From contig NC_059436.1 in the NCBI RefSeq assembly GCF_021028975.2, positions 34,286,001 to 34,350,000 of the forward strand: a stretch of 64,000 nucleotides of DNA. The letters are read 5' to 3'. This document shows, one piece after another, positions 327 to 63,289 of the stretch (positions within the stretch are counted from its first letter, which is position 1; every line of letters starts with the position of its first letter). Source of the stretch: Sphaerodactylus townsendi. Its lineage: Eukaryota. A program made the position numbers and the translations under genes. Below the pieces are notes generated by a model. The model made no database searches. It was not told where the DNA came from and worked only from the letters and a program-made list of their open reading frames with translations.

Positions 327-2361
327 CTGAGAGTGAAACAATGCTATAGATTAGATGAGGTTTGCAGCCCATGATATGGAGTAGAATCAACATAGCCGGC
401 CTCCAAGCCTCTCTGCAAGTTTCTTCAAATAGCATTCATTGCGGCCCTGTTTCAACTCCTTCTTTTCCTCTCTCTGAGAGGCAGTAGAGAGAAAGCACCT
501 CCTGAGTTATTATTCATGCCATGCCATTAATGGACCTGGCACTTTACAGAATCCAAAGCAGGAGAGCTGCACCAACAGAGGAGAAATTGAAAAGAGCTAC
601 GGAAAAGTGATTTTAATTAACCCAGGTCTCTTTGTCAAAGGTATTCTTCTACCCTGTTCCCAAGATACAGATCCCTTTCTGCAGCAAAGGGAACATAGCT
701 GTGGTTCCAAATAGACTGAGTAGACGGCAAAAAGTAACATTCATTTCCCACAAGACCCCATAAGCAAATAAATAAAAATCCCTGCCCAAGCAGCTTACAG
801 CTGGAAGTCTGGTAGCAGTGAAGAATTGCTAGGCAACATTAAAGGGGAATAAGCATAAGCAACTACAGATAGGGAACAATGAATGGGAATTGAGGAGAGT
901 AACATAATTCTCTCCACAAGCCTTTGATCCCATCCTGATTTTATCACATTTCCACTCTTGCCTCTGTCTCCCACAGCTCAACTTCTCTATAAAAACATCA
1001 CCTTTTTCTTCTACATGGCCTGACACACTATATCAGTAGCAACACTGGATCTTACTGGATGCTGAAGTGTTTTCCAGGCGGTGTGGCCATAGTCTAGTAG
1101 CCTAACATTTTGCCCAAATCTATGACTAGCAACTTTAGAGGCATGTCACAGGAAGATGTGTTTCTCTCTATGGCACATAGCCTTCGACAATACACTGCTG
1201 TTTTACTTCACCACGCTCCCATTTTGAGTGGGGCTTGGTGACAGCTGTCAAAAGGGAAAAAAAAAACCCTGCCAATTCTTTACTCCACAGACCTTTCTCA
1301 AAGGGTGACAGCATGGATAGGAGCCACGGGGGTTTCAACCCAGATGTCGGCCTTGTTTTTGTTCTGATGTTCCTCCATGTTCAAGAATGCCACATTGCTG
1401 GATTGGGGGTTGTGGGGAAAGCAACAAAGGAAGGCTGTTTGCGTTCTGGTTGGCCACTATGGAAACAGGACACTAAAGGGCTCCAGAAATTCTGCAACAA
1501 TTGGCTTTCAGTTACCAGCTCTGTTATTATCACGTAAGAGTAAAAACAGATTCTAGGGCTCTAACATAGGGCCACCGGTGGTATTACTGGTTCTCCCATT
1601 TGCTCTGCCCAGCAACACTATCCTGGGAAAGTTTACATGCATGCATTTAACAGTAGCATGACAGGACAAAAATCCAACAAATGCAGCTTTTCCAGCAACC
1701 AGCATCCTGTCCTTGAGTTTCCAGCCTTGCAGCTTTAAAATACATAGGAAGTCTTGCCGGCAATTTTTAGTAGAGGAGGAGGAATGTGAAGTCCAGAGCA
1801 ATTCGGTTTTACTGGTTCTTCTGCTTCCTACATTCCTAATGGTTCCAAGTATGGTTTGCAAGTATGGTATGTCCACCACCCCATCATACAACCACCATAA
1901 AAAAATTAAACCACCTGAAAAGGCTGACAGATGTTGCTTTTCCTATAACCAGGGGTAGGAGAAGAGAAGCAGCTGCACTTGGGGTTCTTGCCATGTCTCC
2001 AACAGTTAAAGAGTTAGGCTGAGCTCCAGAACAACTCGAGCATACGAAGAAATCAAACAGGTGGAGCTTTTGCTGCAATGGGAGTAAAGGACTGTACCTG
2101 GTGGATTCCTACCCTGCAGCTGTTAAAAGCTCAGACTCTCCTGCTGTAAAAAGCAATAAGTAGAACGACCACTGTAAAACCTTTCCCCAACAACCTGCCC
2201 AGCACGCTCACGGGCTAGCCCCAAAAAGACAGTCATGAACTTCCCACCCCCGCCTACAAAAGACGCAGTGGAGGGGTCTACCCATGTGCCGCCTTGCCCC
2301 TGCCGCAAGGGGCGCTGCTGAGCTGCTCCACCACCCGCGACTCTATGGCTCCCCTCCTCAC

Positions 2362-7517: not shown

Positions 7518-7780
7518 GAAGAGAAGAATAATAGTTTGAATTTATATCTCACTTTTCTCCTCCCCTTCTTCTCCCCACAACAGACACCTTGTGAGGTAGG
7601 TGGGGCTGAGAGAGTTTGCAGAGAACTGTGACTAGCTCAAGGTCACCCTCAGGCTTCATGTATAGGAGCGGAGAAACAAATCCAGTTCACCAGATAAGAG
7701 TCTGCTGCTCATGTGGAGGAGTAGGGAATCAAACCCAGTTCTCCAGGTTCGAGTCCACTGCTCTTAACCATTACACCATG
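7518..7780 (-). mobile_element. tRNA-derived squamate SINE (Squam3-like)
   Basis: Minus-strand head TGGTGTAATGGTTAAGAGC...(A box) and GGTTTGATTCCC (B box). Body is shared with about ten copies in the window. Confidence 0.75.
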
Positions 7781-8492
7781 CTAACTCAACTCAACGAGGT
7801 CTGCATTTGAGAAGGCTTTGAGTTCTAACAGGATGTAAACAATTAAAAATGCCATTGTAAGAAAACAGAATGGGGAAAAACAGAAATAAGCTTAAAATCA
7901 TTTTAAATGTTCCATTGGGGAAAACTGAAGCTGAAATATTGAACTAAATGATTGCATTGCCTCAATGTACTCCGGTCACTTCCAAGCCATGTGCCATGAT
8001 GTACTGATAAATAGTTCCTCTGTAAGCCCAAACACTAGTCTATAGAAGAGGCTGCCCCTCCAAGGTAATTTGACCATTGCATCAAGTACAACCAGTGCTC
8101 TGAATGGCTCCCCCTAGAGCCACACAGCAAATTTTGTACCCTCTGAAGAGGATGCCAATCCCTTTGTGAGTTGCAGCTCTGAACAGGCTTTCTTTCCACC
8201 AGAAGACACCTCCAGATCCATGATTCACAAACAAAAAGAGCAAGTGGGGGATAATCTCTTAGTTTACACAAAGCAAATCTCTGAGGATGGGCACTAATTT
8301 TTAATTCAGAGTAATAAGTTACCTAAGGCACTGATTATCTAAGGCACTATACAATAAGTTATCTAAGGATCCACTCTTTCCAGCTACCACTTCTGTCTCA
8401 AAGGATACCAGCTAATGCAGTCTTCCCCATCAAAGAGTACAGGATAGAAAAAATGAAAGAGAAAGAGTGGAGAAGAGAGATCTGCCACTAAC

Positions 8493-8633: not shown

Positions 8634-8844
8634 CTAGTGGGGCGGAAGAATACAACCATGAGCAAATGAGTCCCCTCTTCCCCCAGACAATGTTCTGAGG
8701 TTTCTGCAGTACTAGCAGTGCCAGGCAAGTATCCTCAACAAAGCTACAGTTCTTGGTGTTATCCATCTTCCAGTGTATAGGGATGAGGCAGCAGCATTCT
8801 TGGACAGGTTGAAGCCCCTCTGGACTTCAGAATACACCTTAGAA

Positions 8845-8990
8845 CCGTGGTGGCGAACCTTTGGCACTCCAGACGTTATGGACTACAATTCCCATCAGCC
8901 CCTGCCAGCATGGTCAATTGACCATGCTGGCAGGGGCTGATGGGAATTGTAGTCCATAACATCTGGAGTGCCAAAGGTTCGCCACCACTG
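8845..8990. mobile_element. hAT-type MITE, near-perfect 146-bp palindrome, in UAP1L1 intron 5
   Basis: TIR C(C/A)GTGGTGGCGAACC. 8-bp TSD CCTTAGAA at 8837-8844 and 8991-8998 (nnnTAnnn). Confidence 0.9.
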
Positions 8991-10314
8991 CCTTAGAATG
9001 TATCTTGTTTGTTAACTTCTGCAACCTGACTGTCAGTCCTTGACTGGCCCCCTCTGCTCCCAGCAGGCAACAGGGCAATCTTCCATTTCCTGATGTAGGA
9101 CTGCAAGAAAAGGCCACTTTTCTATGTCCTGCTGGTATCTTGCAGGGCTGTCACTGCACAAGGGAGCCTCGTGCCACTGCCTCACCATGTGAATCTCTCA
9201 CCAGCTGCAGACAGCTGAGTGTGACTCATCTGCTCTCCTGTAAGCCCTGTCATTGCTGGCAAGAATGGAAAGAGCCACCATCCTCCCGTTGGAGGGGAAA
9301 GAGTATACGTGCGTGGAGGGGGTGGGCGGGCATGGAGTATACTGGAAGGCATTTTGCACCTTAAAAAACCTGCAGCCAGTACTGAATAGTATGAAGGGGG
9401 CATTGTGAGTGGCTATGTAGGGGTTCCTAGGTAAATTTACCAGCATGAGAAGGGTGCCCAGAGACAGAGCATTCAACCCCACTGGCATAGAGAGGCATGC
9501 AGAAGGAAGCCATGCTCCATTCCAGACTACATGCAAAGCAACTGACTGATCTGGGCTGTCAGCTTGGCTGCTTGGAATATGCAGAACAGTTTCCATTGAC
9601 TAAGCATGATGTTTTCACAAGTTGCCAAAGAGTTTTGGGAGGGATTTTTTGCGGGGGGGGGGGGGGGGTATACTTTCAGCAGAGCCTGAAACTTGGCTTT
9701 TAGATAGAAAATTAAGCCCTTTTGGAACCTCCCCTTCTGCACAAATATAGATCTGTCCTGCAATCTATCTAAAGGTGCTGGACAGGTCAAATCTCTGCTT
9801 TTTAAACATCTGACCAACAGTCACAGAAAAAGGCCTGCAAATTATACACACAGAAACTTTTTTTTATTTTTATTAGAATCATATGCCACCCTCTGACAGG
9901 CTCAGGGTGATTTCCAACAGATTCTAATATATACATAAAGCCACAAATACTTTTCTGCATCTAAATTTAGCTCCTAGACCTTCCTTTTTATCATAGGGCT
10001 TTGGAATGAGTGCGGTTTGTTTTCTTCATATAATGTGTCGCAAGTTGTTTAAATTGCCAGCTTCTGACCCACACTGCCCTCCCTCCCTGTTACAACAGAA
10101 AACTTCCAATCAAGTGACTGAAATATCAAATATAATGCCACACAATTTGCAGAACCTGACCTGAGATGTCAAGCTCTTTTTGGATCTCACCTTCTGTAAC
10201 ACTACAGTTCTTGAAAGTTTTGTGTCCCTTTCAAATCTCTATTCACTTCCAAAACTCTGAAATTATCTATCAGGAGCACCACCCTCCAGGCCGGGTGGGC
10301 ACTATAGAACTTAC

Positions 10315-14156: not shown

Positions 14157-14495
<339 letters not shown>

Positions 14496-14683: not shown

Positions 14684-14957
14684 TGAAGAAGTTTGGATTT
14701 ATACCCCAGCTTGAGGAGACTCAAGGTGGCTTACAAGTTCCTTTCCCTTCCTCTCCCCCCAACAGACACCTTGTGAGGTAGGTGGGGCTGAGAGAGTTCT
14801 GAGAGAACTGTGACTAGCCCAAGGTCACCCAGCTGGAATGTAGGTGTGTGGAAATACATCTGGCTCACCAGGTAAGCCTCTGCCACTCAGGTGGAGGAGT
14901 GGGGAATCAAACCCAGTTCTCCAGATTAGAATCCACCCACTCTTAACTACTACACCA
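14684..14957 (-). mobile_element. Squam3-like SINE
   Basis: Same body: cacctt gtgaggtaggtggggctgagagag...ggggaatcaaacccagttctccagattaga. Confidence 0.75.
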
Positions 14958-15269
14958 CACAGATGTGGCATCAAAAACAAAACAAGGTTTTGGGTAAGCC
15001 TCAGGAGCAGGTCCAGTATGATACCATGAAAGGGCATAAAGTTAATCAGGATTTTAATTTTGTTTGCTATTATTGAAACTCCTTGCTGTTTTAAATGATT
15101 GCTTGGCTGATTTACTTATCTGTTATCGTTTTATAAGTTTATTTTTCAAAAAACGTATACCTCTGATAGCTGCCTTGAAGGCTCTTCCGTGGAGATTTGG
15201 GAGAGACGTTTGTAAAGAAACACACCTCACGTCCAAGATCAAACCGCTCTGCCCTGTCATTTATGCCCG

Positions 15270-17504: not shown

Positions 17505-19310
17505 CTTTTATTTTTATTTATTTTTTATTTTTTATTTAGATTTCTATACCACCCTATCCCCAAGAGGCTCTGTGTGGTGTACAACATAAAATCAATACAA
17601 TATTAAATAAGGGAGCAAACCATACAAATCCACCACAACAAAATACATAGGCTCCATCCATTTAAATAATCATTAAGACTTACTAAAGTTCCATTAAAAA
17701 CAGCGATTAATACAAGAAAAGGCATCCAATAAACCCATTTTTCAAACCCTCCCCCCCCAAAGGGGGAATGGCTAGACCCCTCCATAGGGGGGTTGCCCAG
17801 ATGTAAAGGGCAGAAGAGTGGAAAGCGGGCACCACACTCAGCGGCTGGTCACTCCAAAGGCCCGGTGGAACAACTCAGTCTTGCAGGCCCTGCGGAATTC
17901 GCCAAGATCCCACAGAGCCTGGACAGCTGGAGGAAGAGTGTTCCACCAGGCTGGGGCCAGGGCCGTAAAGTCCCTGGCCTGCGTGGAGGCCAGCCGCATC
18001 ATTGAGGGGCCGGGAACCACCAGCAAATTGAGCGCAGAGGCCGAGTAGGGACATATGGGATAATGCGGTCCTGAAGGTACAAGGGTCCCAGGCTGCATAA
18101 GGCCTTAAAGGTCAAAACCCACACCTTGAAGATGATTTGGAATTCAACCGGGAGCCAATGCAGCTGGCGCAACACAGGCTGAATGTGATCTCGAAAGGTG
18201 CCCTCATGAGCAGACGTGCTGCTGCATGTTGGACCAGTTTCAGTTTCCGAATCAACCGCAAGGGAAGGCCCGCGTAGAGCGAGCTACAATAGTCTAACCT
18301 GGAGGTGACCATTGCATGAATCACAGTGGCTAGGTCTGCCTGGAAGAGGAAGGGAACCAACCGCCGGGCCTGACGAAGATGGAAAAATGCAGGGTTGTAA
18401 GGGCCACCTGGGTCTCCATTGAAAGAGATGAATCCAGGTGGACCCCCAGACTGCGGACGGAGGAGGTCAGCGTCAAAGTGACCCCCTCCCACACCGGCAG
18501 CTGGAAATCCCCAACCTCCCCCCCGTGGCCAAGCCAGAGGATCTCTGTCTTCGATGGATTCAGTTTTAACCGGCTCTGCTGCAACCAACCAGCGACCGCC
18601 TCCAGACAATGCTGTAGAGCTGCAGGGGCGGCGACCACTCCCCCCTCCATCAACAGAATGAGCTGAGTGTCATCAGCGTACTGATGACAGATCAGCCCAA
18701 AGCTCCGTACCAGCTGAGCAAGTGGTCGCATATAGATGTTAAATAACTGCAAGGATAATAACGCCCCCTGGGGTACACCGCAATGAAGTGGGCACTTCCG
18801 GGAGGCTTGATCCCCGCACCACACTTGCTGACTCTGGTCCCGGAGGAACGAAACAATCCACTGAAGGACAGTGCCCCGCACCCCGGAAGCAGCCAGGCGG
18901 TGGGCCAAAAGGTCGTGGTCGACCACATCAAACGCTGTGGTAAGATCTCACAAAATCAGCAATGCCGATCCACCTCGGTCAAGCTGCATATGGAGCGAAT
19001 CTGTGACAGCGACGAGAACAGTCTCCGTCCCATGCCCAGCACGGAAACCGGACTGGAAGGGATCGAAGGCCGATGTGTCATCCAGGAAGCCCTGAAGCTG
19101 CTCCAACACCACTCTCTCAATTACCTTCCCCAGAAACGAAAGATTCGAGACGGGGCGGTAATTGGCCAGATCCCCCGGATCTAATGATGGTCTTTTCAAG
19201 AGTGGGCGGACCACTGCCTCCTTCAACCCATCCGGAAAGACTCCTTGCTCAAGGGAGCCATTGATGATATTCAACAGATGGGGTCGTAGCTTTCTAACCT
19301 CCACTCCCTC
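17505..19310 (-). mobile_element. 5'-truncated L2-clade LINE (reverse transcriptase, C-terminus and 3' UTR), inactivated
   Basis: [54 protein letters not shown] and SRLDYCSSLYAGLP. In-frame TGA near 18948 and a frameshift near 18400. (TAAA)-rich tail at 17505-17540. Confidence 0.88.
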
Positions 19311-20149
19311 AAGCAACTCACAGCATTTGGGAAATTAAAGAAGTTTCATTTCTTAAAATTACATTTCACATTAAAATCACAAAAAAATGGATTAAGAAAA
19401 GATGAAACCAGAGAGAGAATTTCATTTTAAAATGTTGATTTTGAAGCAAATCGAAAGCAACCTTTCAGAAACCAACAGCCCTCCCAAGATGTGTATATTT
19501 AGTTCCTCTGAATATGTGGGAGGTACAAGTGGAGACTTAGAGGTTGGCCAGGGGTTTGATTCCCTTGTACTCCTGAGCAGGGCTGTCTTAACTGCCTTAT
19601 AGGCCCGCAGGCAAAGCAGTACACTGGGGCCCCTAACCACACAACTACTCACAGGAATAAAAATGTAGTGTGTGCAATATGTACACATACACGCACGTGT
19701 GGTTGCAGAGGTGACCATGATACTAAATCAGAGGTAAATGCCAATATCCACTTGTTATAAAAAATTAACATCGTTCCTTATCTTTAGCAAAACACAAACT
19801 AAATATGCATTTTCCAATAACAAATATTTATAGTTCTGTTTGGTATTTATTGACAGCAAGTCATGACATACATAGATTGGCAGGGGCCCCTAATGTATGG
19901 GCCCAGCGTCCTCATGGATTAAGACTGCCTGCTCCTGGATCCTGTGTGGGGCAGTTGGTCTTCCCAAACGGTCACAAAGGATTCTATGAATCTGCCAATT
20001 TTCCATCTGAAGTGAAATCTGGGTAAGCTGAAGGCCATCCTTACAGCTTCTGACTGTGAGTTCTCTAAGGTAATTCATGTGAAAAACAAAAAGGTATTGA
20101 ATCTGTCAGTTCCGAATGGATTCTCCTTTGCCTTGGCAGTGAAGTGGAG

Positions 20150-21090
20150 GGAAGGATCAAGCAGGCTCAGCCGGGTTTGGGGGAGTTCAGCCGTTTAAGC
20201 CCCCCTCACTTTCTTTGCCCGAAGCTTGAGGCGAACAAAAAACGCTATGCGCACGGTATGGCAACTACCATCCCGGGAAAAATCAAACGGGCTCGCTGGT
20301 TCCTCAGCCAATCCGTTCAGAGGGCTCTTTCCGCGCTAGCCAATGAGGCAGAAGAGGATGCAAATGAATCTGACGTCACAAAGGGAGGTCCCATTCATTC
20401 CCTTAGAACGTTCGGAAAACTTTTGGAGTCGGAATTTAGCGTAACAATTTTCGGGACTTTTCCCGGGAGGGGAAGGAGGCTTCCATGGCGCCGGAGCGCG
20501 GCAGTGACGGGCGCCCGCAGCTCCCAGAGGATTCGCCTTGCAGCACCGAGGGACTGCCGAAGGCTTTCTTGCAAAGCCTGCGGACCCTCTTCGACATCCT
20601 AGACGATCGCCGGAGGGGCTACGTGCACCTGCGGGAGATCGAGTCCCGCTGGCTGCAGCAAGGCCCTGAGGCCAGAGAGTTACCCCGGGGTGTTTTAGAA
20701 GGGCTACGGCGAGCCGCCCCGGCCAGCGGCTACCTCACCTTCGAGAGGTTCGTACTGGGATTGCGAGCGTCTCTGCTCAGTTCGGACAAAAGGAGCAGTC
20801 CAGCGATCGTCGCCAACGGCAAAGTCCCGGGGCTCAGAGAGGAAGGCAAAGTTGCGGAGAAGGGGCTGGAAAGAGGGGGAAGCGCTTCTCGGAGCCTGGA
20901 AAAGATCCCCAACTCTCGGGTGGAACCGATTCAATGCAAGAGAGAGGGTGAGTGTAAGAGAGAGAGGAGGCGATGCTAAACGGGAACCTCGGTGTTCCCG
21001 GGGAATAAAACACCTAAAGCCTGCTAAGGGCATAGGTATTCCTAACTATCGATGAGAGTATCTTCGAGCGAGCGCAGAGTGCGTTTGAGT
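20150..21090. promoter_or_regulatory. CpG island / SAPCD2 promoter with CCAAT boxes (20308, 20340) and a palindromic CRE TGACGTCA (20371-20378)
   Basis: Motifs read directly, upstream of ATG 20485. Confidence 0.7.
20485..20947 (+). CDS. SAPCD2: SAPCD2 (suppressor APC domain-containing 2) exon 1
   Basis: tccATGG start. STEGLPKAFLQSLRTLFDILDDRRRGYVHLREIESRW...ASGYLTFERFVLGLRASLL matches the SAPCD2 N-terminus. Donor G|gtgagt. Confidence 0.93.
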
Positions 21091-21287: not shown

Positions 21288-21405
21288 AATTGTCAAATGC
21301 TTTCATGGCCGCAATCACAAGGGTGCCAGCCACAGATGCAGGCGAAACGTCAGGAGAAAATGCTACTGGAACACGGCCATACAACCCAGAAAACCCACAA
21401 CACCC
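21288..21405 (+). mobile_element. Short Penelope-like (PLE) terminal fragment with the 3' half of a hammerhead motif
   Basis: 14-bp TSD TTCTGAGAATATTG (21274-21287 / 21406-21419). Contains GCCAGCCACAGATGCAGGC GAAA CG TC AGG and begins with an inverted copy of the element 3' tail. Confidence 0.7.
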
Positions 21406-21472
21406 TTCTGAGAATATTGCTGACATGACAGCAACCAGGATCAGCATGTGAAGACTCTTTATGTATATTCCA

Positions 21473-21730
21473 GCTGTTGTGGGTTTTCCGGGCAATGTGG
21501 CCGTGGTCTGGTAGTTTTTGCTTCTAACATTTTGCCTGCATCAATGGCTGGCACTTTCAGAGGCATATCATGTCACAGGAAACACATCTCACCATGACAT
21601 GCCTCTAAAGATGCCAGCCATAGATGTGGGTGAACAGTCAAGAGTAAAAACTACTGGACCCCAGCCATACAGTCTGGAAAACCCACAACAACCGTTTGAT
21701 TCCAGCCATGAAAGCCTTTAACAGTACATT
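21473..21730. mobile_element. Fold-back (inverted dimer) PLE-like element with degenerate hammerheads
   Basis: Arms at ~21473-21575 and ~21590-21695 are mutual reverse complements. Same family as the 51.8 and 54.0 kb copies. Confidence 0.7.
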
Positions 21731-22087: not shown

Positions 22088-22658
22088 GTAGGGAGGCAGT
22101 TCTGGCCCCACACCTGGGATGGAAAATCTACTTTCACTTCCTGTTTCATGGTATAAATGACAGCCGGGATCTGGAGACCGTATCAAGTCCGCACAAGCAT
22201 TTGGACCACAACTGATGCATTCCTAATCCCCCCCCCCCCCCCGCCACCGCCCCTTTTAAACCTCAGCTCAGATTGGATAAAAAATGCATTTGAAAATCCC
22301 CTCTGCTGCAGAAGCAGCTTGGCAGGGGCCGTGAGAGTCTGCTGCTCTTGGGGAAACATAAGCTCAAAGTCCCCTTTTTGTTGCGCGTTGTCTAATCCGG
22401 GTTTAATCGGGATTGTGGGTGTCTTTTAAAGTGCAGGTGAATTCAGACTAGCACAGCATGACTAGAAAGACAGAACTGGCACTGAGCTTCTGCTGCAGGT
22501 ATCCATAGTGCTGATATGACTTCATCTTCATCAAGCAGGCTTGCTCGCTTCATCTTCATCACCAATTATATATTTATTCATATACAAGTCTAGGGTCACA
22601 AAAATTTATAATTCCTACATTCAGTTGCAGAGCGATGACATTGGGTGATGGGCTAGCA

Positions 22659-22774
22659 CAGAGATGTCCACCTCTGGCGCTTCAGGTGTTCATGGACTAC
22701 AATTCCCATGCCAGCAGGGGCTGATGGGAATTGTAGTCCATGAACACCTGAAGCACCAGAGGTGGACACCCCTG
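22659..22774. mobile_element. hAT-type palindromic MITE in SAPCD2 intron 2
   Basis: 8-bp TSD GGCTAGCA (22651-22658 / 22775-22782). The internal ggactacaattcccat core is shared with the 8845 element. Confidence 0.85.
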
Positions 22775-25026
22775 GGCTAGCATGTGCAAATCCACCCTGA
22801 CTGAAGGATGCCTTCTTGCCTTCTTTGTGGACTCCAAATACCCTTTTTTATGGATGCATTCCTAGCTGTCTCCTTTTTCTGCTGAACGGATCCATCCCTG
22901 TGCTCAGTGCATTATTGGCAAAGGTACACCAAGTGGCTACCCCCAGAATTATGGAACTCCCTTCCGTCTGACACTTGCCCAAGTCCAGGACTGGTCGTTT
23001 TCCCAGTTGCACTTTGAGGTCTCTGTTGGGATTGACTCTTTAGCTGGCCCGGATTAAACTGGAAAGGGATACACTTAATTAGATTAATTTTGTCAGTTCA
23101 ACATCAGTGTGTTTTAAGAAGAATATCCGACCTCTGAATAGAAGAAACCCTGGCCTCTCTTTACCCCAGAATGCGAGTCTTTTGCTTCTCTCCCCCTTCC
23201 CGATGTGGAATGTATTTCTCACTCCATTAGTGCGTTTCTGTGTGTTTGCTTTGGGCTAACAGCAGGCTTGCTCGCTCATCCTTCACTGATCCGGATTGAT
23301 CGGCCTAGTGGGATCCCTTGTGGCTCACTGCAGCTGGAATGAGGCTTTTTGCTACTCAGGTGGCCTGTTTCCCCTCATCCTCCCTCCCTCTGTGGTGGGT
23401 ACAAGCTGCTCTCCACTGTCTGTTTCCCCTGATCCTCCCACACCCCTGGATCTTTGATCAGTTGCGGACAGGATGCCCTCTGCCTGCTCCCTGAGCAGGG
23501 AAACCTCTGGAGGGATGCTGGCTTTTTCTCCTGTCACCATGGTAACTGGCCAGCCCTGGCCGAGAGGAACCCGGGGAGGTCATTCAGCTGCGGATGGCCA
23601 AGGCAGCTGGATGGGGATCTTTGCGACCTACAGCACCCTCTTTGTCCCTCTGACCAACAGCCTGTGCAGCCGCAAAGCACTCAAGTTTTTCCTCTGGGTA
23701 TGTCCTTCAATGGGTCGGGCATGCAAGGGTGGCGTTGTGGTAATTGTACACTTTAATTCTAGGCTTAGGCGTTCTGTGGGGGGGTTGTGTATATTTTGGG
23801 GCAGAATAGTGGAGAACAGAAAGGCATTATGGGCTGACAGCTGGTGGTTGGAGTTTCAGACTGGAATTGGGGAGATCTGGATTCTTCAAACTGCACACTG
23901 AGTCATTGATGTTGGGCACATTGTACTGGCAGTTATATTGCATGGTTGTTGTGATGATGAAACAGAGGAAAAGAGAACTGGTTGTCGCTCTGAGCTCCTT
24001 GGAGGAAGGGAGGAAGAAAAAGGGGATAGGTGTGTTGCTGTGGCTCACTTTTAAAAAGAGAGAACACAGGATTGAATCGGGTCTGCTTGTATGTCATGGT
24101 TCTATGGAATGCAGTAGAAGATGGTGATGGCCACAAAAAACTCTCAGCTTCACAAGACATTCTGCTTTGGGGTTACTTGAGTTTGTTTCGCCCCAGGCCT
24201 CTAACCCTCATGGTTGCCAGGAGATGATTTAAAGTGTTTCGGCAGTGATATTTCAAAACTTCATTGCTGAAATATGATTTGCAGTAATCAGAGGGTGGTG
24301 CTCCAGACATTGTTTGTACAATCATCTCAGGCTAGTCTACTAGTTTTAAGTAACAAATCTGAATTTGTGTATAAATCATACATTTTCCCCCCGGGATCTT
24401 GCCTCCTCCTCAGCAGAAAGGACACTCTCCTATGCCGCTGTTCCTATGGCCAGGTGGCCAAAAGTCATGGCACTGTTCACTAAATTTGATTAATTTGAGG
24501 ATGCTATAAAAACATAGTACAAATCTATGGTTAGCAAATCAGCTACAAACAGTTGTTTGAAACCCAACTAACTTAAAATCTCAATTTGTTGGACTTTCTG
24601 CAATCAGAAGTCACAACTCACCAGATTCAATCCAATCAAGATCTTCTTTCCTTGTAGACCTTTGAAGGAAATGTAAGGTTGGTTGGGCTTCTTTCTTTTT
24701 GACTGATTCTTCCTCTTCCTGAATTCTTGTTCCTGTTGTGTTATTTTACTATATGCGTGTGCACATATGAATTTTGTGTGTCTTGCCCTGTGAACTTGCT
24801 TGTGCATTTTGATCTTCTTTGGTGCCCTATCTGTATAAGAGTTTTTTGGTGGTGGCACTCTGTATCTCTGGGACATTCTTTCCTGGGACATACACCTGGA
24901 GCCCTGCTGCTGGAATTCACATGCCAGGCAAAGGGTCTCTGTGTGTTTCATTCTGTTTTGGACCACATTCTGTTTTGGACTTTTTGTTTTCTGTACAGGA
25001 AATCTCAGTCCTCTTCATTTTATGAT

Positions 25027-25623: not shown

Positions 25624-25880
25624 CTTTTCTCCCCTGTAAGGAGACTCTATGGCTTGCAAACTCCTTTCCCTTCCTCTCCCCGCAACAGACACCTTGTGAG
25701 GCAGGTGGGACTGAGAGAGTGCAGAGAGAAATGTGACTCGCTCAAGGTCACCCAGCAGGAATGTAGGAGTAGGGAAATAAATCCGGTTCTCCAGATAAGA
25801 TTCTGCCACTCATGTGAAGGAGCAGGGAATCAAACCCAATTCTCCAAATTAGAGTCCACTTGCTCTTATTCACTATGCCA
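25624..25880 (-). mobile_element. Squam3-like SINE
   Basis: Shared SINE body and tRNA-like head. Confidence 0.7.
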
Positions 25881-26284
25881 AAATGGAAGATATATAAAGC
25901 CCAGAGGGCTCCCCAGTCCTTAAATCCTTATGGAAAGAGATGAGTTGCAGGCTAGGGGGGATAGGCTGTTCTTACATTGTAGCCCTTTTTTCCCCATTAG
26001 AGCAATATGGACAAGAATTTCGATCTTTCAAAAAGGTAAAGAAAGTGATAGGAACAATGTTGGGCCTCTGGCCCCCAAATCCCCAAGAGTTCAAAGAGAA
26101 AAGTTGTCCTAGCCCTGAAAGAATGGCATCTCCTGGGAGCTCCTTTGAAATAATAATGGGATTGAGAAAGCTCCCAAAAGTAGAAGGCAAATTGTCTCCT
26201 TGGACATGTAAATGTACACAGTGTTGCTTCTATGACATGATTGTGGGAGGGGCATGGAACATCTTTGGCTTTGTGTCTCGGCAG

Positions 26285-26431
26285 CTGCAACAAATGAAGG
26301 AGTTAGAAAAAGAGAAGGATTTTCTGCTGCAAGGGCTGGAGATGGTAGAGCAGGCCCAAGAGTGGTACCACCAGGAGATCCGCATCCTGCAAGAACGCCA
26401 GAAGCAACTGGGCAAAAGCAAAGTTCACAGT
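26285..26431 (+). CDS. SAPCD2: SAPCD2 exon 3 (coiled coil)
   Basis: cag|LQQMKELEKEKDFLLQGLEMVEQAQEWYHQEIRILQERQKQLGKSKVHS|gtgagt. Confidence 0.93.
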
Positions 26432-27174
26432 GTGAGTAAAGGAACGGCTCCCTTGGGGTGTTTCCTGCAAGCAGGAGCAGCTTGCAAGGAACCGGTTGCC
26501 CTTGGACCTCCCTCCTTATGGGAAGGAGGTCCCCGCAGCATGACTTCATCCAGTTATATAGCACGGGCAGGGTTTCAAAGTCCATTTGGGTGTGGTGTGC
26601 TGTTATGATCTGCCCATTTCTGAGAGTTAGCTGCAGAAAGGGATCGGGGTTACAGTGCTGGCTTGTTTGGTAATTTGGTGTAGCCACTGCAGATTCACAG
26701 GTGGGCTCCCAATTCAGTACTTACAAGAGGACTAATGTGGCTTCTCCCCAGTTCCCTCCTTTTGAAAAAGAAGGTGAGGAACTATAGGAGTGGGAGCAGA
26801 GCTTGGAAGTTATGCTCAGGTATAGTCAACCCTGCATATTCAGCTGCAGGATGTTGAAAGAACCCCTGAGAAGGGCCAAGGGAAGCAAGCTGGAAGGCTT
26901 GGGCAGGAATGGTGCAGGCACACGTCCACGTTCACAAGCAACCAGCAGGGCCGCATGGCTCGTACCCTGAAGCTTTTCCTGCCCTGGATTCTGTGACCCA
27001 TATACATTATGTAAATTGAGCAAATGTGCATGATTTGTATTTCATTCTTGGATCTGCTTTTGCTGGTAACGAGAAAAGGAGCAAAGAGATTTGCAACAGT
27101 CCAGTGGTGGGGGGTGTTGTTTACTCCATAAATAATATTGTTCTCCTCCCCCCCACCCATGTCTTCTCACCCAG

Positions 27175-30922: not shown

Positions 30923-31246
30923 AAGAAGAAGAAGAAGAAGAAGAGTTTGGATTTATATCCCCCCTTTCTCTCCTGTAGGAGACTCAAAGGGGCTTACAAT
31001 CTCCTTGCCCTTCCCCCCTCACAACAAACACCCTATGAGGTGGGTGGGGCTGAGAGAGCTCTGAAAAGCTGTGACTAGCCCAAGGTCACCCAGCTGGCGT
31101 GTGTGGAAGTGTACAGGCTAATCTGAATTCCCCAGATAAGCCTCCACAACTCAAGTGGCAGAGCTGGGAATCAAACCCAGTTCCTCCAGATCAGAGTGCA
31201 CCTGCTCTTAGCCACTGTTCTTAGCCACTACGCCACTGCTGCTCCC
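30923..31246 (-). mobile_element. Squam3-like SINE, full length, with (CTT)n tail
   Basis: Near-identical to the 46971-47344 copy. Confidence 0.8.
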
Positions 31247-34545: not shown

Positions 34546-35741
34546 CTTTCTTTCCAAAGTCCTCTGAACTTTTGATCTATTTGCAGAGTTGGGAAATCTT
34601 GTTACCAAACTTTCATTCCCTTTGTGAAACCACTTTCTTCGAAAACAATTGAGGAACTTCCAACAGATGCAAGAATGCACATCCTCCCCGCCCATTCAAA
34701 TCCTCTCCTTTAGGGTGAACTTGGAGACCTCAGTGGATTCATTTTATTTGTCTCGCTCCTTCTCGAGCCACTTGAGGAAAGGGGTGGTTCTCCTATTTAA
34801 CTAACAAGCCTGAGCTCTCCAAGCCTTGTCTGTGGGTGACCCTACTTGCCCTACTGATAGATATTGGATCACCAAGCTTGCTGTTTGTGGGAGCAATAGG
34901 AGCATTGTGGGGAAAGGGGGGGGGCATAAGGAACACTCATGTGACTTCAGTGGACTCTGCTTAGGAGTCCATGGTCAGTGAGCTCACAGCAAAGGCAAGA
35001 TCCGAACCCAGCCCTTCCTGGTTTGCAGCTGCCCTGAGGGTAATCCCGAGGAGCAGTAGTTTGCAAGGTCAGAGTCCTGACTCTTTTTTTCTAAATGCCT
35101 TTATCTCCTGAGGCGAATTCAATGCCATTCTACAAAAGATATGAAGATGCCCAGGTGATCCAGCTGATAGGGAACATCATCCGGGTGGGCTGTTTCCAAA
35201 GCATTCTGCATGAATTTCAGTCCAATCCCTTTCCCTCCCACACCCTCTTGAGATCCATATCAGGACCAATGGTGTTTCATTTGAATTTGTTCTGAAATTA
35301 TCTTGAACTGGGGGTGAGCGGTGCAAAGGCCAAGTTGGTGCCTGGCCCCCCCTTGCTCTGGATCGTGCAAACCAAAGCTAATTGTGGAAAGCCGGGTGAG
35401 TGGGCAGCAACACAGCAAACGAGGTTTAGGTGCAGTCAGTGTAACATGTTGCACATTGAGGCAAAGAAATCCAAACGGCTCTATAGTGGAGGCAGCTATT
35501 CAAGGAAAATGATCTTGGCCTTGGTTAAAACCTCAGCTCATTGGACAACATTGGTGAAAAAGGATGCTCAAGGAAAAAGCACGGGGAACGACACTCATCC
35601 CTGATTTTGCCAGTTCAGAAGGGGGGGGGGGCGCATCTGAGAAGTATGTGGCTGGTCAACACTGCTAAAAAAGAATGCTGGACTAGATGATTCTTACCCA
35701 GCAGGCTTCTTACAGTTGTAATCCATATTCTCTGCCTTGCC

Positions 35742-36986
35742 GTTGAGAAAACTCAGCAATGAAGGAATAAGAGGGGAAGTCCTCCTATGGATTCAAAACT
35801 GGTTGAGAAACAGGAAGCAAAGAGTGGGTGTAAATGGGAAGTTCTCACAATGGAGAGATGTCGGGAGTGGTGTCCCCCAAGGATCCGTTTTGGGACCAGT
35901 GCTCTTTAACCTATTCATAAATGACCTGGAAGTAGGGGTGGGTAGCGTGGTGGCCAAGTTTGCAGATGATACCAAATTATGTAGGGTGGTGAGAACCACA
36001 AAGAGTTGTGAAGAATCCATGGACCTTGATAAATTAGGTAGGTGGGCTCCAGAAATGGCAAATGCAGTTCAATGTAGCAAAATGTAAAGTGATGCACATA
36101 GGGCAGAATCCAAAACTTCACACATACAGCTGCAGGGATCAGTGCTTCGAGTCACAAACCAGGAAAGGGATTTAGGTGTCTTGGTTGCTAGTTCCATGGG
36201 AATGTCAACTCAATGCATACAGCAGCTGTAAAAAAAGGCAAACTCTATGCTGAATAGTGGAAAGGAGTTGATAATAAAACTGCAAGGATTGTCATGCCCT
36301 CTATATAAAGCAGTGGTCGCGATTCGCTACTTGGAGTACTGTGTCCAGTTCTGGTCGCATCTCAAAAGGATAAGCATGAGGAGATAGAAAAAAGTGCAGA
36401 GAAAGGAGGCAACAAAAAAGGATGATTGTGAGGACTGGAGCACCTTCCTATGAGGAGAGGCTGCAGCGTTTGGAACTCTTTTAGTTTGGAGAGGAGGTAT
36501 TGAGGGGGATATGGATTGAAGTCTACAAAATTATGCATGGGGTAGAAAATGTTGACAGAAAGTACCTCTCTTTCTCCTGTCACAATAATAGAACCAGGGG
36601 CATACATTGAAAATGCTGGGGGGAAGAATTAGAACTAATGAAAGCGAAACACTTCTTCCTTAGCGTGTGATTGAGGGTGTTTGGAATATGCTGCCACAGG
36701 AGGTGGTGATGGCCACTAACCTGGATAGCTTTAAAAGGGGCTTGGACAGATTTATGGAGGAGAAGTGCGGTTTATGGCTACCAGTCTTGGATCCTCATTG
36801 ATCTACCAAGGGTGCAAAGCGCCTTAACAGACCAGGTGATCGGGAGCAACACCGCATGAAGCTGCCATTGCGTTCACATCCCACCATGGCAGGCTCCCCA
36901 AGGCACCTGGTGGGCCACTGCGAGTAGCAGAGAGCTGGACTAGATGGACTCTGGTCTGATCCAGCTGGCTTGTTCTTATGTTCTTA
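35742..36986 (+). mobile_element. 5'-truncated CR1 LINE (RT C-terminal part and 3' UTR)
   Basis: WIQNWLRNRKQRVGVNG..SGVPQGSVLGPVLFNLFINDL..KFADDTKL. Frameshifted downstream. Tail GTTCTTATGTTCTTA. Confidence 0.9.
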
Positions 36987-43960: not shown

Positions 43961-44290
43961 GAAGAAGGAGAAGAAGAGGAGGAGGAGTTTGGATTTATAC
44001 CCCACCTTTCTCTCCTGTAAGGAGACTCAAAGTGACTTACAAGCTCCTTTCCCTTCCTCTCCCCACAACAGACACCTTATGAGATTAGGTGCTTGGGCTG
44101 AGAGAAGGTTCTCCAGAGAAGAGCTGTGGTGTAGCCAAAGGTCACCCCAGCAGCAGCAATGTAGGAGTGCAGAAACACACCTCTGGTTCTGGCTAAGTCT
44201 CTGCCACTCCAGGTCAGGAGGTGGAGAATCAAACCGGTTCTGCCAGATTAAAAATCCACCTGCTCTTAATCCCGCCCGACCTGCGCTTTG
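43961..44290 (-). mobile_element. Squam3-like SINE
   Basis: Shared body with a GAA/GGA tail. Confidence 0.7.
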
Positions 44291-46970: not shown

Positions 46971-47054
46971 GAAGAAGAAGAAGAAGAAGAAGAAGAAGAA
47001 GAAGAAGAAGAAGAAGAAGAAGAAGAAGAAGAAGAAGAAGAAGAAGAAGAAGAA
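46971..47054. repeat. (GAA)~28 microsatellite, the expanded tail of a SINE
   Basis: Uninterrupted 84-nt GAA run. Confidence 0.95.
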
Positions 47055-47344
47055 GAGTTTAGATTTATATCCCCCCTTTCTCTCCTGCAGGAGACTCAAA
47101 GGGGCTTACAATCTCCTTGCCCTTCCCCCCTCACAACAAACACCCTGTGAGGTAGGTGGGGCTGAGAGAGCTCCGAGAAGCTGTGACTAGCCCAAGGCCA
47201 CCCAGCTGGCATGTGTGGGAGTGTACAGGCTAATCTGAATTCCCCAGATAAGCCTCCACAGCTCAGGCAGCAGAACTGGGAATCAAACCCGGTTCTTCCA
47301 GATTAGATACACGAACTCTTAACCTCCTACACCACGGCTGCTCA
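46971..47344 (-). mobile_element. Squam3-like SINE inserted into the left duplication of a Sauria SINE
   Basis: Flanked by TAGAG (46967-46971 / 47345-47349). Confidence 0.8.
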
Positions 47345-47358
47345 TAGAGGATGTGCAA

Positions 47359-47653
47359 GAGCTGCATGGTGTAGTGGTTAAGTGCTTGCACTGCCACTCA
47401 CACGGTCAGGAGTTTGAGTCCCTGTGGGTCAGCTATCCTGGCAGCTGGCTCATGGTCAACTCAGCCATCCATTCATTCCTTCGTCGGTAAATGAGACCTA
47501 GCTCATAGCTAGGGGGGGTAAAGAATAGCCGGGCAAACTACCCAACAAAAGCAATGGCAAACTACCCCACAAAAGAGGATTGCTTGTAAAATCACTGCTC
47601 GCAGTGGTACCCCAGGGTCGGACACGACTGAAGGGGAAACATTACCTTTTTAT
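47359..47653 (+). mobile_element. Sauria-type SINE
   Basis: tRNA-like head TGGTGTAGTGGTTAAG, core tcaactcagccatccat...cggtaaatgag, and BovB-like end gtcggacacgactgaaggggaa...accttt. Confidence 0.75.
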
Positions 47654-50742: not shown

Positions 50743-51795
50743 CTGGCTGGAGGGTGCACTGCTTTAAAGGGGCTTGTCTTTCCTATTGTGGTGCACAGAT
50801 TTCACTGAAAGGCTAAGCGCTTGAAGTTCTTGCTGGATCCTCGTTTCCTGTTGAAGAGAAAAAGTGTCCATGACAGAAAAAATTGTCCCCTCCCAGCCTC
50901 GCCCACAGCTATGGGGACCTTTTTTGCAGATGTCTGATCTGGCTACACCGGTCCATACTTCAGTAATATTTAGGCTACATTACTGCAATGCACTCTGCAC
51001 TGGACTGTCCTTAAAAGATGATCTGGAAGCTGCAGCTGACATTTTCCTGTTTGCTTTGTTAAATAGTTTTGTATTGTTTTTTACATTGTTATTATCCACC
51101 TTTGTCCTGGGCTACCTGGAAGAAAGGCAGGTACACAAATAATTTTAAATAAATAAATGCGTGCCAAACTCTTTTGAGCCCTGAAACTACTTTCCAAATG
51201 TTAAGTGCTATGAACTTTTCCTCTCTGACGTCAGTCTCTTCAGCTGTTCTATTACATCAAGGGGGGAAATGGGTTTTCAAGACAGCTTCAAACATTCTAA
51301 TCCGAAAAAGAATGTCTCAATGTGATACCTCTTGTGGAAGGAATAGGAAACCAGCTGTGCTGTAGCCTGCCAGGGGAGTGACCGAAGGCTGACAGTGTGA
51401 TTTCTCCAGAGATGCTGTGCTCATCCGGGGATAATTGGATATCTGAAAACCCTCTGTTTGTATATAATTATTGCCCTGGTTCATTTCCCCTCCCCGGGCT
51501 CTTCTTCCAAGGAGCTGATTGCAGCCAGTGTGGAGTTAGAAGGTCATACTGATGAGAGACCCAGGTTCAAATCCCCACCTCGGGCCTATCATCCTCTCAG
51601 CTCTCTAACCCAACTCAGAGTTGCTGGGAAGGTAAAATGGAGGGCAACAGAACCATGTACCCCATCTTGAGTGTCTTGAGAGGAAAGAGGATAAAAATGC
51701 TAACTGTACAAGGAACTTAGTCTGAGCCAAGCTTACTGGCTGAGGCCACTTAGTGATCTTTAAGGATGAGTAGCGATCTGAACACAGGTCTTTAA

Positions 51796-51944
51796 GTGGT
51801 TGTGGTGGTTTTTCCGAGCTGTGTGGCCGTGGTCTGGTAGATCTTGTTCTTAACGTTTCGCCTGCATCTGTGGCTGGCATCTTCAGAGGTATATCACAGA
51901 GAGAAGTGGGTTACACACTGTGTCCAGTGAAAGCCTTCAACAAT
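51796..51944 (-). mobile_element. Short PLE-like element with an intact hammerhead core
   Basis: 14-bp TSD ACACAGGTCTTTAA (51782-51795 / 51945-51958). Inverted 3' tail tgaaagccttcaacaat at the right end. Confidence 0.75.
51849..51889 (-). ncRNA. Minimal type-I hammerhead ribozyme motif (family 1)
   Basis: CCU-CUGAAGA-U-GCCAGC[CACAGAU]GCAGGC-GAAA-CG-UU-AAG. All core nucleotides are present; one mismatch in stem I. Confidence 0.7.
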
Positions 51945-52027
51945 ACACAGGTCTTTAAATCTAGAACACCCTGTCTTGTTTATATTTCCCCTGGTTCTCC
52001 CTCCAGGAAGTTGACATAGCATACATG

Positions 52028-52628: not shown

Positions 52629-53485
52629 CCGTATATACTCGTGTATAAGTCGACCCGCATAGAAGTCGAGGCACCTAATTTTACCACAAAAAACTGGGAA
52701 AACTTATTGACTCGCATATAAGTCGAGGGTGGGAAATGCAGCATCAATTGAGGCATCAGTAGGTTAAATGTTTTTGAATATTTACTTCAAAGAAAAACAG
52801 TAAACTGGCTTTGTAAGTGGAAAAGAGGGTCAACAAGAACAGTATGGTATCAACAATAACTTTAAAAGTACAAAAACCTTAGCTCAACCAGCAACCAAGC
52901 TAAAACACAAGAGTTAAAATCCTTCAAAACTGGATTCCTCATCATCAACTGTATGTCCAAATGTAACCCAACTTAGATTTTAAGAGGGATATTATCAGAA
53001 ATGAAAAATCTACTATTAGCTTCCATTGTAAACAATGGGGGATGGGGCATCCCCTTTGGGGGTCAATAACTTTGGATCCCCCAACCCAAACTTCACCAAA
53101 CCTAGCTGGTATCATAAAGAGACTCTCCTGATGAGACCAGCCAGGTTTGGTGAAGTTTGGTTCCGAGGGTCCAAAGTTATGGACCCTCAAAAGGGTAGCC
53201 CCATCTACTAATAGCTCCCATTGAAAACAATGGGGACACCTCCTTTGGGGGTCCATAACTTTGGACCCCCTGAACCAAACTTTACCAAACTTGGCTGGTA
53301 CCATCAGGAGTGTCTTCTGAGGGTACCCTGAAATTTTGGTGACTCTAGCATAAAAACTGCGCCCCCTGCTGGCCGGCAAAGTAAAAACACACAAAATTAA
53401 TTAATGACCTGCATATAAGTCGAGGGGAGCTTTTTCAGCATTAAAAATGTGCTGAAAAATTCGACTTATACTTGAGTATATACGG
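52629..53485. mobile_element. Non-autonomous Tc1/mariner-superfamily (Tc2/pogo-like) DNA transposon
   Basis: TA TSDs. ~25-bp TIR CCGTATATACTCGTGTATAAGTCGA / TCGACTTATACTTGAGTATATACGG. Subterminal ATAAGTCGA repeats; no transposase ORF. Confidence 0.85.
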
Positions 53486-53984: not shown

Positions 53985-54241
53985 AGCTGTCAAAGGCTTT
54001 CACGGCTGGATTCAACTGGTTGTGGTGGGTTTTCCAGGCTGTGTGGCCGTGGTCTGGTAGATCTTGTTCCTAACATTTCGCCTGCAACTGTGGCTGGCAT
54101 CTTCGGAGGTGTTATCACAGAGAGAAGTGTGTTTCTCTCTGTGACACACCTCTGCAGATGCTGTCCACAGATGCAGGCGAAACGTTAGGAACAAGATCTA
54201 CCAGATCACGGCCACACAGCCCGGAAAACCCACAACAACCA
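53985..54241. mobile_element. Fold-back PLE-like element with two opposed hammerhead motifs
   Basis: Arms 54017-54126 and 54133-54241. Probable TSD ACATGTCTGT / ACATGCCTGT. Confidence 0.78.
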
Positions 54242-57094: not shown

Positions 57095-57381
57095 CAGCGT
57101 GGTGTAGTGGTTAAGAGCATGTGGATTCTAATCTGGAGAACCGGGTCTGATTCCCCATTCCTCCACCAGAGTGGCGGAGGCTTATCTGGTGAACCAGATG
57201 TGTTTCTGCACTCCTACATTCCTGCTGGTTGACCTTGGACTAGTCACAGTTCTTTGGAACTCTCTCAGCCCCACCTACCTCAGAAGGCATCTGTTGTAGG
57301 GAGAGGAAGGAGCTTGTAAGCCACCTTGAGACTCCTTACAAGAGAGAAAGGTGGGTGTATAAATCCAAACTCCTCCTCCTC
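57095..57381 (+). mobile_element. Squam3-like SINE, full length
   Basis: CCAGCGTGGTGTAGTGGTTAAGAGC A box, GGTCTGATTCCCC B box and (CCT)n tail. Confidence 0.8.
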
Positions 57382-62907: not shown

Positions 62908-63230
62908 AAGAAGAAGAAGAAGAGTTTGGATTTATATCCCCCCTTTCTCTCCTGTAGGAGACTCAAAGGGGCTTACACTTCTTGTTCACCTTGCCCTCAC
63001 CAACAAACTTACACCTGGTGGAGGTGGGTGGGGTTGAGAGGAAACTCCTGAAAAAGCTGTGGGCCTAGCTCCAAGTGTCACCCAGCTGGCGTAGTGTGTG
63101 GGAGTGCACTGGCTGGAATTCGAGCTCCCCAGATGAAGCCTCCACAGCTCAGGCAGCAGAGCGGAGAATCAAACCCGGTTCCTCCAGATTAGATACACAA
63201 GCTCTTAACCTCCTATGCCACTGCTGCTCC
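62908..63230 (-). mobile_element. Squam3-like SINE
   Basis: GAA tail plus shared body, with many small insertions. Confidence 0.75.
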
Positions 63231-63289
63231 TTCAGGCCGCGGAAGCTGCCTGAAGGGAGGGGTGGGGGGAGCAATTCCACACCTGGGGC

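Follow-up and report, generated by a model that had tools for sequence, protein, structure and literature searches.

The locus at 51782–51958 of the window (by which we mean the whole 64,000-nt stretch of contig C12 analysed here) raises a simple question: is a 150-nt insertion bearing a hammerhead ribozyme core a mobile element in its own right, or a remnant of something larger? The first-pass annotation proposed a non-autonomous, ribozyme-bearing family. We consider it likely that the focal stub, as we call this element together with its TSDs, is a dead end left by an autonomous Penelope/Poseidon retroelement, and that it arose when two nicks each primed a cDNA on the same uncut RNA. The hammerhead lies on the minus strand, element positions are numbered from the A of the ATG (+1, window 51880, minus strand), and the genome searched comprises 1.81 Gb.

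Layout of the focal stub

The stub consists of two oppositely oriented arms between two copies of the 14-mer ACACAGGTCTTTAA, which is present exactly at both TSD positions given in Table 1. The perfect 14-bp TSD of the first-pass annotation is thus confirmed, and mismatched flanks yielded 10 hits in 600 trials of the same search. The long, tail-less arm runs from +84 and therefore takes in 28 codons of the ORF, so that an element described as non-coding turns out to contain the ATG and 28 codons of a Poseidon ORF. What had been called an inverted copy of the element's own 3′ tail is indeed a tail on the opposite strand, but it matches nothing in the hammerhead arm and is instead a second arm, whose final 3 nt (ACA) fall inside the right TSD. 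Apart from the GTGA at their junction, the +84 arm and the +118 arm do not overlap, and the stub has neither a TATA box nor ORF nt 85–172. The arrangement in two arms, the positions where they end, the TSD and the junction microhomology are all direct observations. The tail-less arm differs from the family majority at 7 of 130 nt (5.4%); this equals the family median, and there is therefore no sign of selection on the focal copy.

Table 1. Positions of the focal stub, related stubs and neighbouring exons in the window
Feature	Position	Strand	Basis or remark
Left TSD, 14 bp	51782..51795	+	identical to 51945-51958
Right TSD, 14 bp	51945..51958	+	
Tail-less arm, Poseidon pLTR/ORF junction, −50 to +84	51797..51930	-	family alignment
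Tail arm, +98 to +118, element-sense, 21 nt	51927..51947	+	family alignment
GTGA, 4-nt microhomology joining the arms	51927..51930	.	junction comparison
Initiator-like TCACT (−50 to −46), where the tail-less arm stops	51926..51930	-	
ORF codons 1-28 (MPATDAGETL...)	51797..51880	-	ATG overlaps ribozyme core and stem II
Minimal type-I hammerhead	51849..51889	-	stem I CCU/AAG, CUGAAGA+U, stem II 5/6, GAAA, palindrome ACGU
Copy-specific G-to-A, breaking the middle pair of stem I	51850	-	
UCUGUG (−20 to −15), complementary to loop II CACAGA (51872-51867)	51895..51900	-	6-bp pseudoknot possible
Old decayed stub, focal-like layout (long antisense arm, ~19-nt tail)	1069..1195		
GUC-type sister-subfamily stub	21288..21405		perfect 14-bp TSD (21274-87 / 21406-19)
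Older head-to-head stub, tail right	21472..21728		degenerate 13-bp TSD (11/13)
Second stub of the focal (GUU) subfamily, head-to-head, tail left	53985..54240		10-bp TSD (9/10)
UDPGP-family exon	14157-14495	-	
SAPCD2-like exons (SAPC2_N, Suppressor_APC)	20440-20976, 25898-26605	+	

A complete hammerhead core with a broken stem I

Read on the minus strand from 51889 to 51849, the hammerhead agrees letter for letter with the sequence originally quoted. Its core and cleavage site are all there (C3–A9 as CUGAAGA, the extra U, G12–A15 as GAAA, and the GUU triplet, with a predicted cut between 51852 and 51851), as is the 2-nt palindromic stem III (ACGU). The word "intact" is justified for this catalytic core but not for the stems: stem I is broken, and stem II, described as paired, forms 5 of 6 pairs but has a central A·A mismatch. 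That A·A is the family state, with A in 62 of 63 arms and, in the first 100 entries of the 15,874 relaxed matches, 96 A and 0 U at the stem II centre. Stem I of the focal copy reads U-A, C·A, C-G, two of three pairs with the mismatch in the middle. This mutation too is directly observed: position 51850 is G in 60 of 63 family arms, about 98% of contig depth agrees with AGG, and where the focal copy has AAG on this strand of stem I, 98 of the first 100 exact matches listed (3442 in total) have AGG. In the family-majority sequence stem I is fully paired (3/3), and 29 of 63 arms keep the core, stem I, at least five stem II pairs and stem III. Set beside the definition of a minimal PLE hammerhead, the focal copy has the core, the extra nucleotide before G10.1, the NUH and the palindromic 15.2–16.2, and lacks full pairing of stems I and II.

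Evaluated as a hammerhead fold, the focal copy scores +0.9 kcal/mol, versus −5.7 kcal/mol for a related copy (L002), and MFE folding of the focal region did not recover the hammerhead and was no more stable than that of shuffled sequences (minus-strand z of −0.26 to +1.07). An Rfam search of the window at E ≤ 1 returned 20 matches, none of them a hammerhead; minimal motifs likely fall below its models, so this result weighs neither way. At the genome scale the relaxed motif gave its 15,874 matches; in the window the core-plus-stem-II descriptor was passed by one insertion of five, the focal one. The nearest same-strand motif (arm 54017-54143) has a mutated core, and there is no intact dimer partner nearby. 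In published work on minimal PLE hammerheads, as far as the parts consulted describe it, a lone motif showed no cleavage, and dimers cleaved weakly (PMC4209133). Because it has no TATA box, no intact same-strand partner and an unpaired stem I, the focal copy is probably inert, that is, judged from its sequence, probably neither catalytic nor mobile.

A Penelope/Poseidon source element

Long copies with the same pLTR carry RVT_1 and GIY-YIG, which bears out the suggested link between this minimal type-I hammerhead and Penelope-like elements, and an RT and GIY-YIG partner with the same termini was found in L079. L079 is close to full length and interrupted by later insertions, and its parts follow one another as TSD, antisense tail-less arm, pLTR, ATG-bearing hammerhead, ORF, pLTR, tail, TSD; its frame from the ATG is open for 110 translated codons, a stretch that passes into a later insertion. 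Three of six pieces matched in Pfam (RVT_1 in L079 at E 1.5e-9 and in L078 at 4e-10; GIY-YIG in L068 at 9.4e-6, downstream of the thumb region). Pfam missed the GIY-YIG-type piece P0001, and a PDB search gave weak matches to other RTs only, with a chance match for the thumb-EN piece. No intact element was found among the 20 long loci examined, all of which are broken or carry insertions. A CX2-5CxxC zinc finger between RT and EN is given as a mark of Neptune and Nematis in the sections consulted of PMC8557442; none is present in the open thumb-to-GIY-YIG frames of L068, L073 and L066, which points to the Penelope/Poseidon clade.

The family shows the layout of EN+ PLEs: a pLTR over the ORF start, an inverted 5′ copy, a TSD and a one-sided tail of 34 nt (+85 to +118). 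The 30 best relatives of the focal stub vary in length and orientation, and the long ones extend upstream into GIY-YIG-type coding sequence. Across the full sample, 124 insertions span 75–1569 nt and the longer ones enter the GIY-YIG/RT coding region, which speaks against a separate non-autonomous family. Directly downstream of the cut site, a 96-nt stretch is colinear and gap-free with the RNA of the anole element PAc, 70 of 96 being identical and 24 of 26 at the end, in a by-eye comparison with supplement 1 of PMC11167929. Family identity is plain from these alignments, and on sequence grounds we conclude that the focal element is a stub left by an autonomous Penelope/Poseidon retroelement close to PAc.

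Several other features of this family are worth recording. Five copies (L107, L112, L130, L136, L149) lack the same 112 nt at the ORF end (−292 to −181) without GT-AG ends, and are probably a subfamily with a shorter C-terminus. A sister subfamily with the canonical GUC triplet is larger, with 13,182 exact 30-nt matches (L154–L183; window 21288-21405), and its predicted start (about −13) would place the hammerhead at the extreme 5′ end of the RNA. A tandem array at L091:1431-2996 (G000:C1, about 4702437-4704002) comprises about 13 units of 109 nt, each with a hammerhead and spanning about −21 to +87; the first units are 100% alike, and the array is dimer-competent by layout. At L082:1-6886 (G000:C1:186895000-186901885) a 3.4-kb duplication in inverted orientation has arms that are 98% identical and each contain a Poseidon stub; it is either a real palindrome or an assembly artefact. 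Finally, L034, L035 and L036, all on C1, have a common stub layout and a common 10-bp TSD, which suggests segmental duplication.

Related insertions and genomic setting

The first-pass estimate of at least five insertions in 64 kb is borne out by related copies at about 1069, 21288, 21472, 51796 and 53985. In the stub at 53985 the hammerhead cores of both arms are mutated, and the stub at 21288 is missing the CUGANGA half of the core. The window also holds palindromic MITE-like repeats (8832-9003, 22655-22778, 53041-53342, 3020-3234), with sub-threshold Rfam microRNA matches, and RVT_1 remnants at 18333-19334 (minus strand) and 35722-36084 (plus strand) that are probably LINE fragments unrelated to the focal stub. 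An abundant SINE-like family of about 270–300 nt, which we presume to resemble Sauria SINE, is present on both strands (7532-7787, 14687-14965, 25637-25888, 30923-31195, 43971-44083, 47035-47359, 57099-57310, 62908-63245). Such repeats of squamate SINE and MITE type, together with the likeness to the anole element, suggest a lizard-like genome.

Upstream in the window, a UDPGP-family exon, which we take to be UAP1L1-like, and the SAPCD2-like gene are arranged head to head; about 40 kb beyond the focal stub lies an ENTPD-family gene (GDA1_CD39 exons, C12:34378087-34387087). Orthologous copies of the focal insertion exist in organisms A, B and D, where contigs cross from the flank into the element, and no empty site lacking it was seen in the contigs of four runs (X3–X6).

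Arm ends and junctions across the family

The 124 insertions comprise 31 best hits (set A), 67 tail-anchored copies (set B) and 26 hammerhead-anchored copies (set C). These samples are biased in that set A consists of best hits, set B requires a 48-nt tail, and sets C and GUC take the first places along contig C1. Set B drew on 70 of 74 tail-anchored places, with one further place (L018) standing in set A. Rows removed as duplicates were L035, L036 and L040 (of L034 and L039), L180 (= L179), and L031 and L033 (= L020 and L001); L092–L094 and L103 were removed as the same insertions as L091 and L102, L103 being kept in the comparison of initiators and arm ends.

Arms are head to head in 75 of 124 insertions and tail to tail in 0 of 124. 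An end at +84 is paired with one at +118 in 52 of the 75 head-to-head copies, two full tails occur in 0 of 75, and ends near +84 on both sides occur in two (L027, L085). L096 is ambiguous (+87 in one count, +107 in another), and 20 further copies have an end outside both classes, many of these being internal pieces of longer copies. In the tail-anchored set all 34 classifiable partner arms end at +84, and an end at +117/118 is common to 98 BLAST-aligned pieces across the 124 loci. A TSD was found in 47 of the 75 head-to-head copies, against the 10/600 control on mismatched flanks; the 58 family TSDs found are 8–19 bp long and 69% AT.

The two arms of an insertion tend to carry the same subfamily variants. 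At non-CpG positions they agree in 31 of 35 cases at +42 (expected 18.8, p 1e-5), in 16 of 20 at −22 (expected 10, p 0.006) and in 4 of 4 at −45. Seven of eight CpG positions, where decay follows insertion, agree between arms only near chance, the exception being +22 (25/30, expected 20.4). Arm divergence within an insertion is 6.4%, compared with 8.0% after shuffling (minimum 7.0% in 1000 shuffles). The agreement at non-CpG subfamily sites is our ground for proposing one shared RNA template, although the identity of the arms could also arise by fold-back copying, by gene conversion between arms, or from two pLTRs of one tandem transcript. The cut site, meanwhile, is crossed by 73 of 101 tail-anchored arms, and stops at +28 to +32 (3/76, or 0.008 per nt) show no excess at the ribozyme cut over the flanks (0.004–0.009), on which basis we regard the RNA as probably uncut.

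Arm stops climb roughly four- to ninefold, to 0.034 per nt, at about −18 to −66. In long GUU copies a TATATA is followed by 20 nt and then TCACT at −50 to −46, a layout (TATA, 20 bp, TCACT) that the parts consulted of PMC3846280 report for Adineta Pen2a; an internal promoter without TATA is described for D. virilis Penelope in the portion consulted of PMC2377424. In the GUC subfamily the TATA/Inr-like pair lies 35 nt nearer the ATG than in GUU, and arm ends are displaced in the same sense: 18 of 27 GUU arms stop at −30 to −52 and 0/27 at −8 to −18, as against 1 of 29 and 14 of 29 GUC arms, respectively. This shift of the stop cluster with the initiator is our ground for suggesting run-off at the RNA 5′ end. 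The ungapped measure used here undercounts long GUU arms (by BLAST, 4 of 41 set-C arms extend beyond −50), the 5′ ends are scattered over about 30 nt and not confined to a single base, and a self-complementary stretch at about −44 to −34 could also collect junctions. A pile of arm ends at −63/−64 was set aside because a small deletion in the reference L079 probably produced it artefactually. Taking rough BLAST ends, junctions overlap by at least 2 nt in 29 of 66 cases and show a gap in 32 of 66; junction microhomology across copies is only moderately supported.

A double-priming model of insertion

These counts suggest how the focal stub may have formed. The element's enzyme would nick both DNA strands about 11–14 bp apart. 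A transcript containing the hammerhead and the ORF start would begin at the pLTR initiator, a start site that we infer to lie at about −48, and an RT/endonuclease, probably a dimer, would begin reverse transcription internally at both +84 and +118. The cDNA from +84 would traverse the uncut ribozyme and reach the RNA 5′ end (−46 to −50), and that from +118 would halt after about 21 nt; annealing of the two cDNAs at GTGA, with repair fill-in, would then yield head-to-head arms and a TSD. The hammerhead would be a passenger from the pLTR.

By analogy, the model finds a counterpart in the biochemistry of PAc, which our double-priming counts appear to match. According to the parts of PMC11167929 compared here, PAc in vitro nicks and extends both target strands, begins reverse transcription on unprocessed RNA at two internal sites 111–118 nt into the ORF, and requires the first 172 nt of the ORF in its RNA; hammerhead mutants still insert, and cleavage requires protein. 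On balance we lean towards a wider reading, in which the tens of thousands of stubs would form a genome-scale record of PLE insertion, each from one uncut pLTR transcript primed at +84 and +118 from opposite strands. If this is true, double priming explains the inverted pLTR, the one-sided tail, the many solo minimal hammerheads and the dispensability of cleavage, and the focal stub is the cleanest limiting case, with non-overlapping arms and one full run-off to the RNA 5′ end.

Weighing alternative readings

That the focal stub belongs to a mini-element of some 150 nt, non-autonomous and copied as a unit in the manner of a SINE or retrozyme, is suggested by the same −50/+98 junction at four loci (L001, L002, L020, L032), the GTGA recurring in L002, L020 and L032 with different flanks, by the similar layout of the old copy at 1069-1195, and by the existence of the tandem array L091 elsewhere in the genome. 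We nonetheless regard this reading as largely refuted and very improbable. The focal junction has 3 exact matches genome-wide, plus L002, compared with 3442 exact hammerhead matches, and the many copies, fixed ends and shared diagnostic variants of a SINE-like family are not seen. Of the seven non-majority bases of the focal copy, L002 and L020 share only +42T, itself found in 42 of 87 arms (L032 is too short to compare), and the focal −29/−28 variant links it instead to the ORF-containing copies L008 and L028. The focal copy is moreover a single unit, without the tandem arrangement and at least two complete hammerheads of a non-LTR retrozyme and without the TATA box and ORF nt 85–172; and since the junction is a 4-nt microhomology it can arise repeatedly, so that, from the sequences compared, the focal-type junction is best read as a recurrently formed microhomology join. 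Host co-option of the insertion for regulation, as RNA or as DNA, would fit the orthologous copies in A, B and D and its place between the SAPCD2-like exons and the ENTPD-family gene, but we hold it to be extremely improbable given a divergence at the family median, the loss of stem I pairing and a ribozyme strand opposite to both flanking genes. A less remote but still unlikely proposal is that the family hammerhead is a full-strength ribozyme, by way of a pseudoknot between loop II and the 5′ leader, and that its cleavage matters in the life cycle, for example in trimming tandem transcripts. UCUGUG can pair perfectly with the loop in the GUU subfamily (the positions concerned being kept in 58–63 of 63 arms each), GUU and GUC subfamilies are identical in core and stems and differ in their flanks, loop II pseudoknots accelerate other hammerheads (PMC3088659, in the part consulted), and the PAc hammerhead cleaves with protein help (PMC11167929, in the parts compared). 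Against this, the GUC subfamily, which is the more abundant, retains the loop but has no upstream partner for it (longest run 3 pairs in 8 long copies), no compensatory change was found between loop and hexamer (GUU-subfamily loop-U variants keep the hexamer unchanged), conservation 3′ of the ATG can be protein-coding, and the ends of inserted cDNAs do not collect at the cut site.

The most serious competitor to double priming concerns the origin of the two arms. A single tail-started cDNA might self-prime at the pLTR palindrome, as envisaged in the parts consulted of PMC3846280, with a later deletion removing most of the tail arm in the focal copy. Such fold-back accounts equally for subfamily variants common to both arms, and several junctions do lie at the −44 to −34 palindrome. 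The two-arm copies of sets B and C (n = 37) divide on this point: arm starts lie within 10 nt of each other in 15, as fold-back would have it, but in 14, as in the focal copy, the tail-less arm extends upstream of the tail arm by more than 10 nt, and for these an extra deletion would be needed; in the remaining 8 the tail arm reaches further. The focal arms, in addition, do not overlap at all, and PAc extends both target strands in vitro (PMC11167929, in the parts compared). We therefore give fold-back a minority chance, well below that of double priming on one uncut RNA.

Comparison with known systems

Earlier publications already describe the motif and its location in the pLTR, as well as the inverted layout and the tail. 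The PAc hammerhead is described in the parts compared of PMC11167929, and minimal PLE hammerheads are known from turtle and snakes according to the parts consulted of PMC4209133; for a gecko Penelope hammerhead our literature search found no relevant paper. The pLTR hammerheads of Cervera and De la Pena (2014, PMC4209133), as presented in those parts, resemble the present ones in the extra nucleotide between A9 and G10.1, the G10.1-C11.1 pair, the palindromic 15.2–16.2, the short stem I, and their occurrence mostly singly in truncated copies and as opposite-strand pairs. The differences are that stem I is only 3 bp here, that stem II has an internal A·A, and that there is a candidate subfamily-specific 6-bp loop II pseudoknot.

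With EN+ PLEs (PMC8557442 and PMC3846280, in the parts consulted) the family shares head-to-head arms, a one-end tail (30–40 bp there), a TSD of about 10 bp and the TATA, 20-bp, TCACT layout (PMC3846280), whereas the focal tail arm is cut to 21 nt without overlap with the other arm. What those parts propose is self-priming or EN-mediated resolution, not twin priming, and a twin-priming model of PLE inversion was not found in our literature search, which misses most subscription papers. Non-LTR retrozymes (10.64898/2026.07.22.740005, in the part consulted) are likewise pLTR-derived, non-coding units with type-I hammerheads, but their definition requires a tandem repeat containing two or more complete hammerheads; the focal copy is a single inverted stub, and it is L091 that fits.

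Taken alone, the focal locus is of little weight, being a decayed copy of a known element class with a known ribozyme motif. The family counts bear on an open question, namely how PLEs, the closest relatives of telomerase RT, form inverted ends and a one-sided tail, and double priming predicts that the two start sites on a single RNA are used strand-specifically and that cDNA synthesis runs off where transcription begins. The counts also carry a caution for ribozyme screens, in that most such matches are passive truncated pLTR copies. In L1 twin priming, two nicks and two cDNAs on one RNA give an inversion joined by microhomology; here, by comparison, the proposed priming sites are internal and fixed, and in most copies the two arms overlap.

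The closest system is PAc (Poseidon_Ac of Anolis carolinensis, PMC11167929). It differs in its ATG-to-cut distance (26 nt, versus 29 nt here), and the focal locus is set apart by the GUU triplet of its subfamily and by its reduction to a 150-nt stub whose stem I is broken; the inverted two-arm layout is not derived in the parts of that paper compared. In those same parts the likeness is extensive: the PAc ORF begins at hammerhead stem II, its inserts end 111–118 nt into the ORF, the tail lies between two RT start sites, and its targets are AT-rich.
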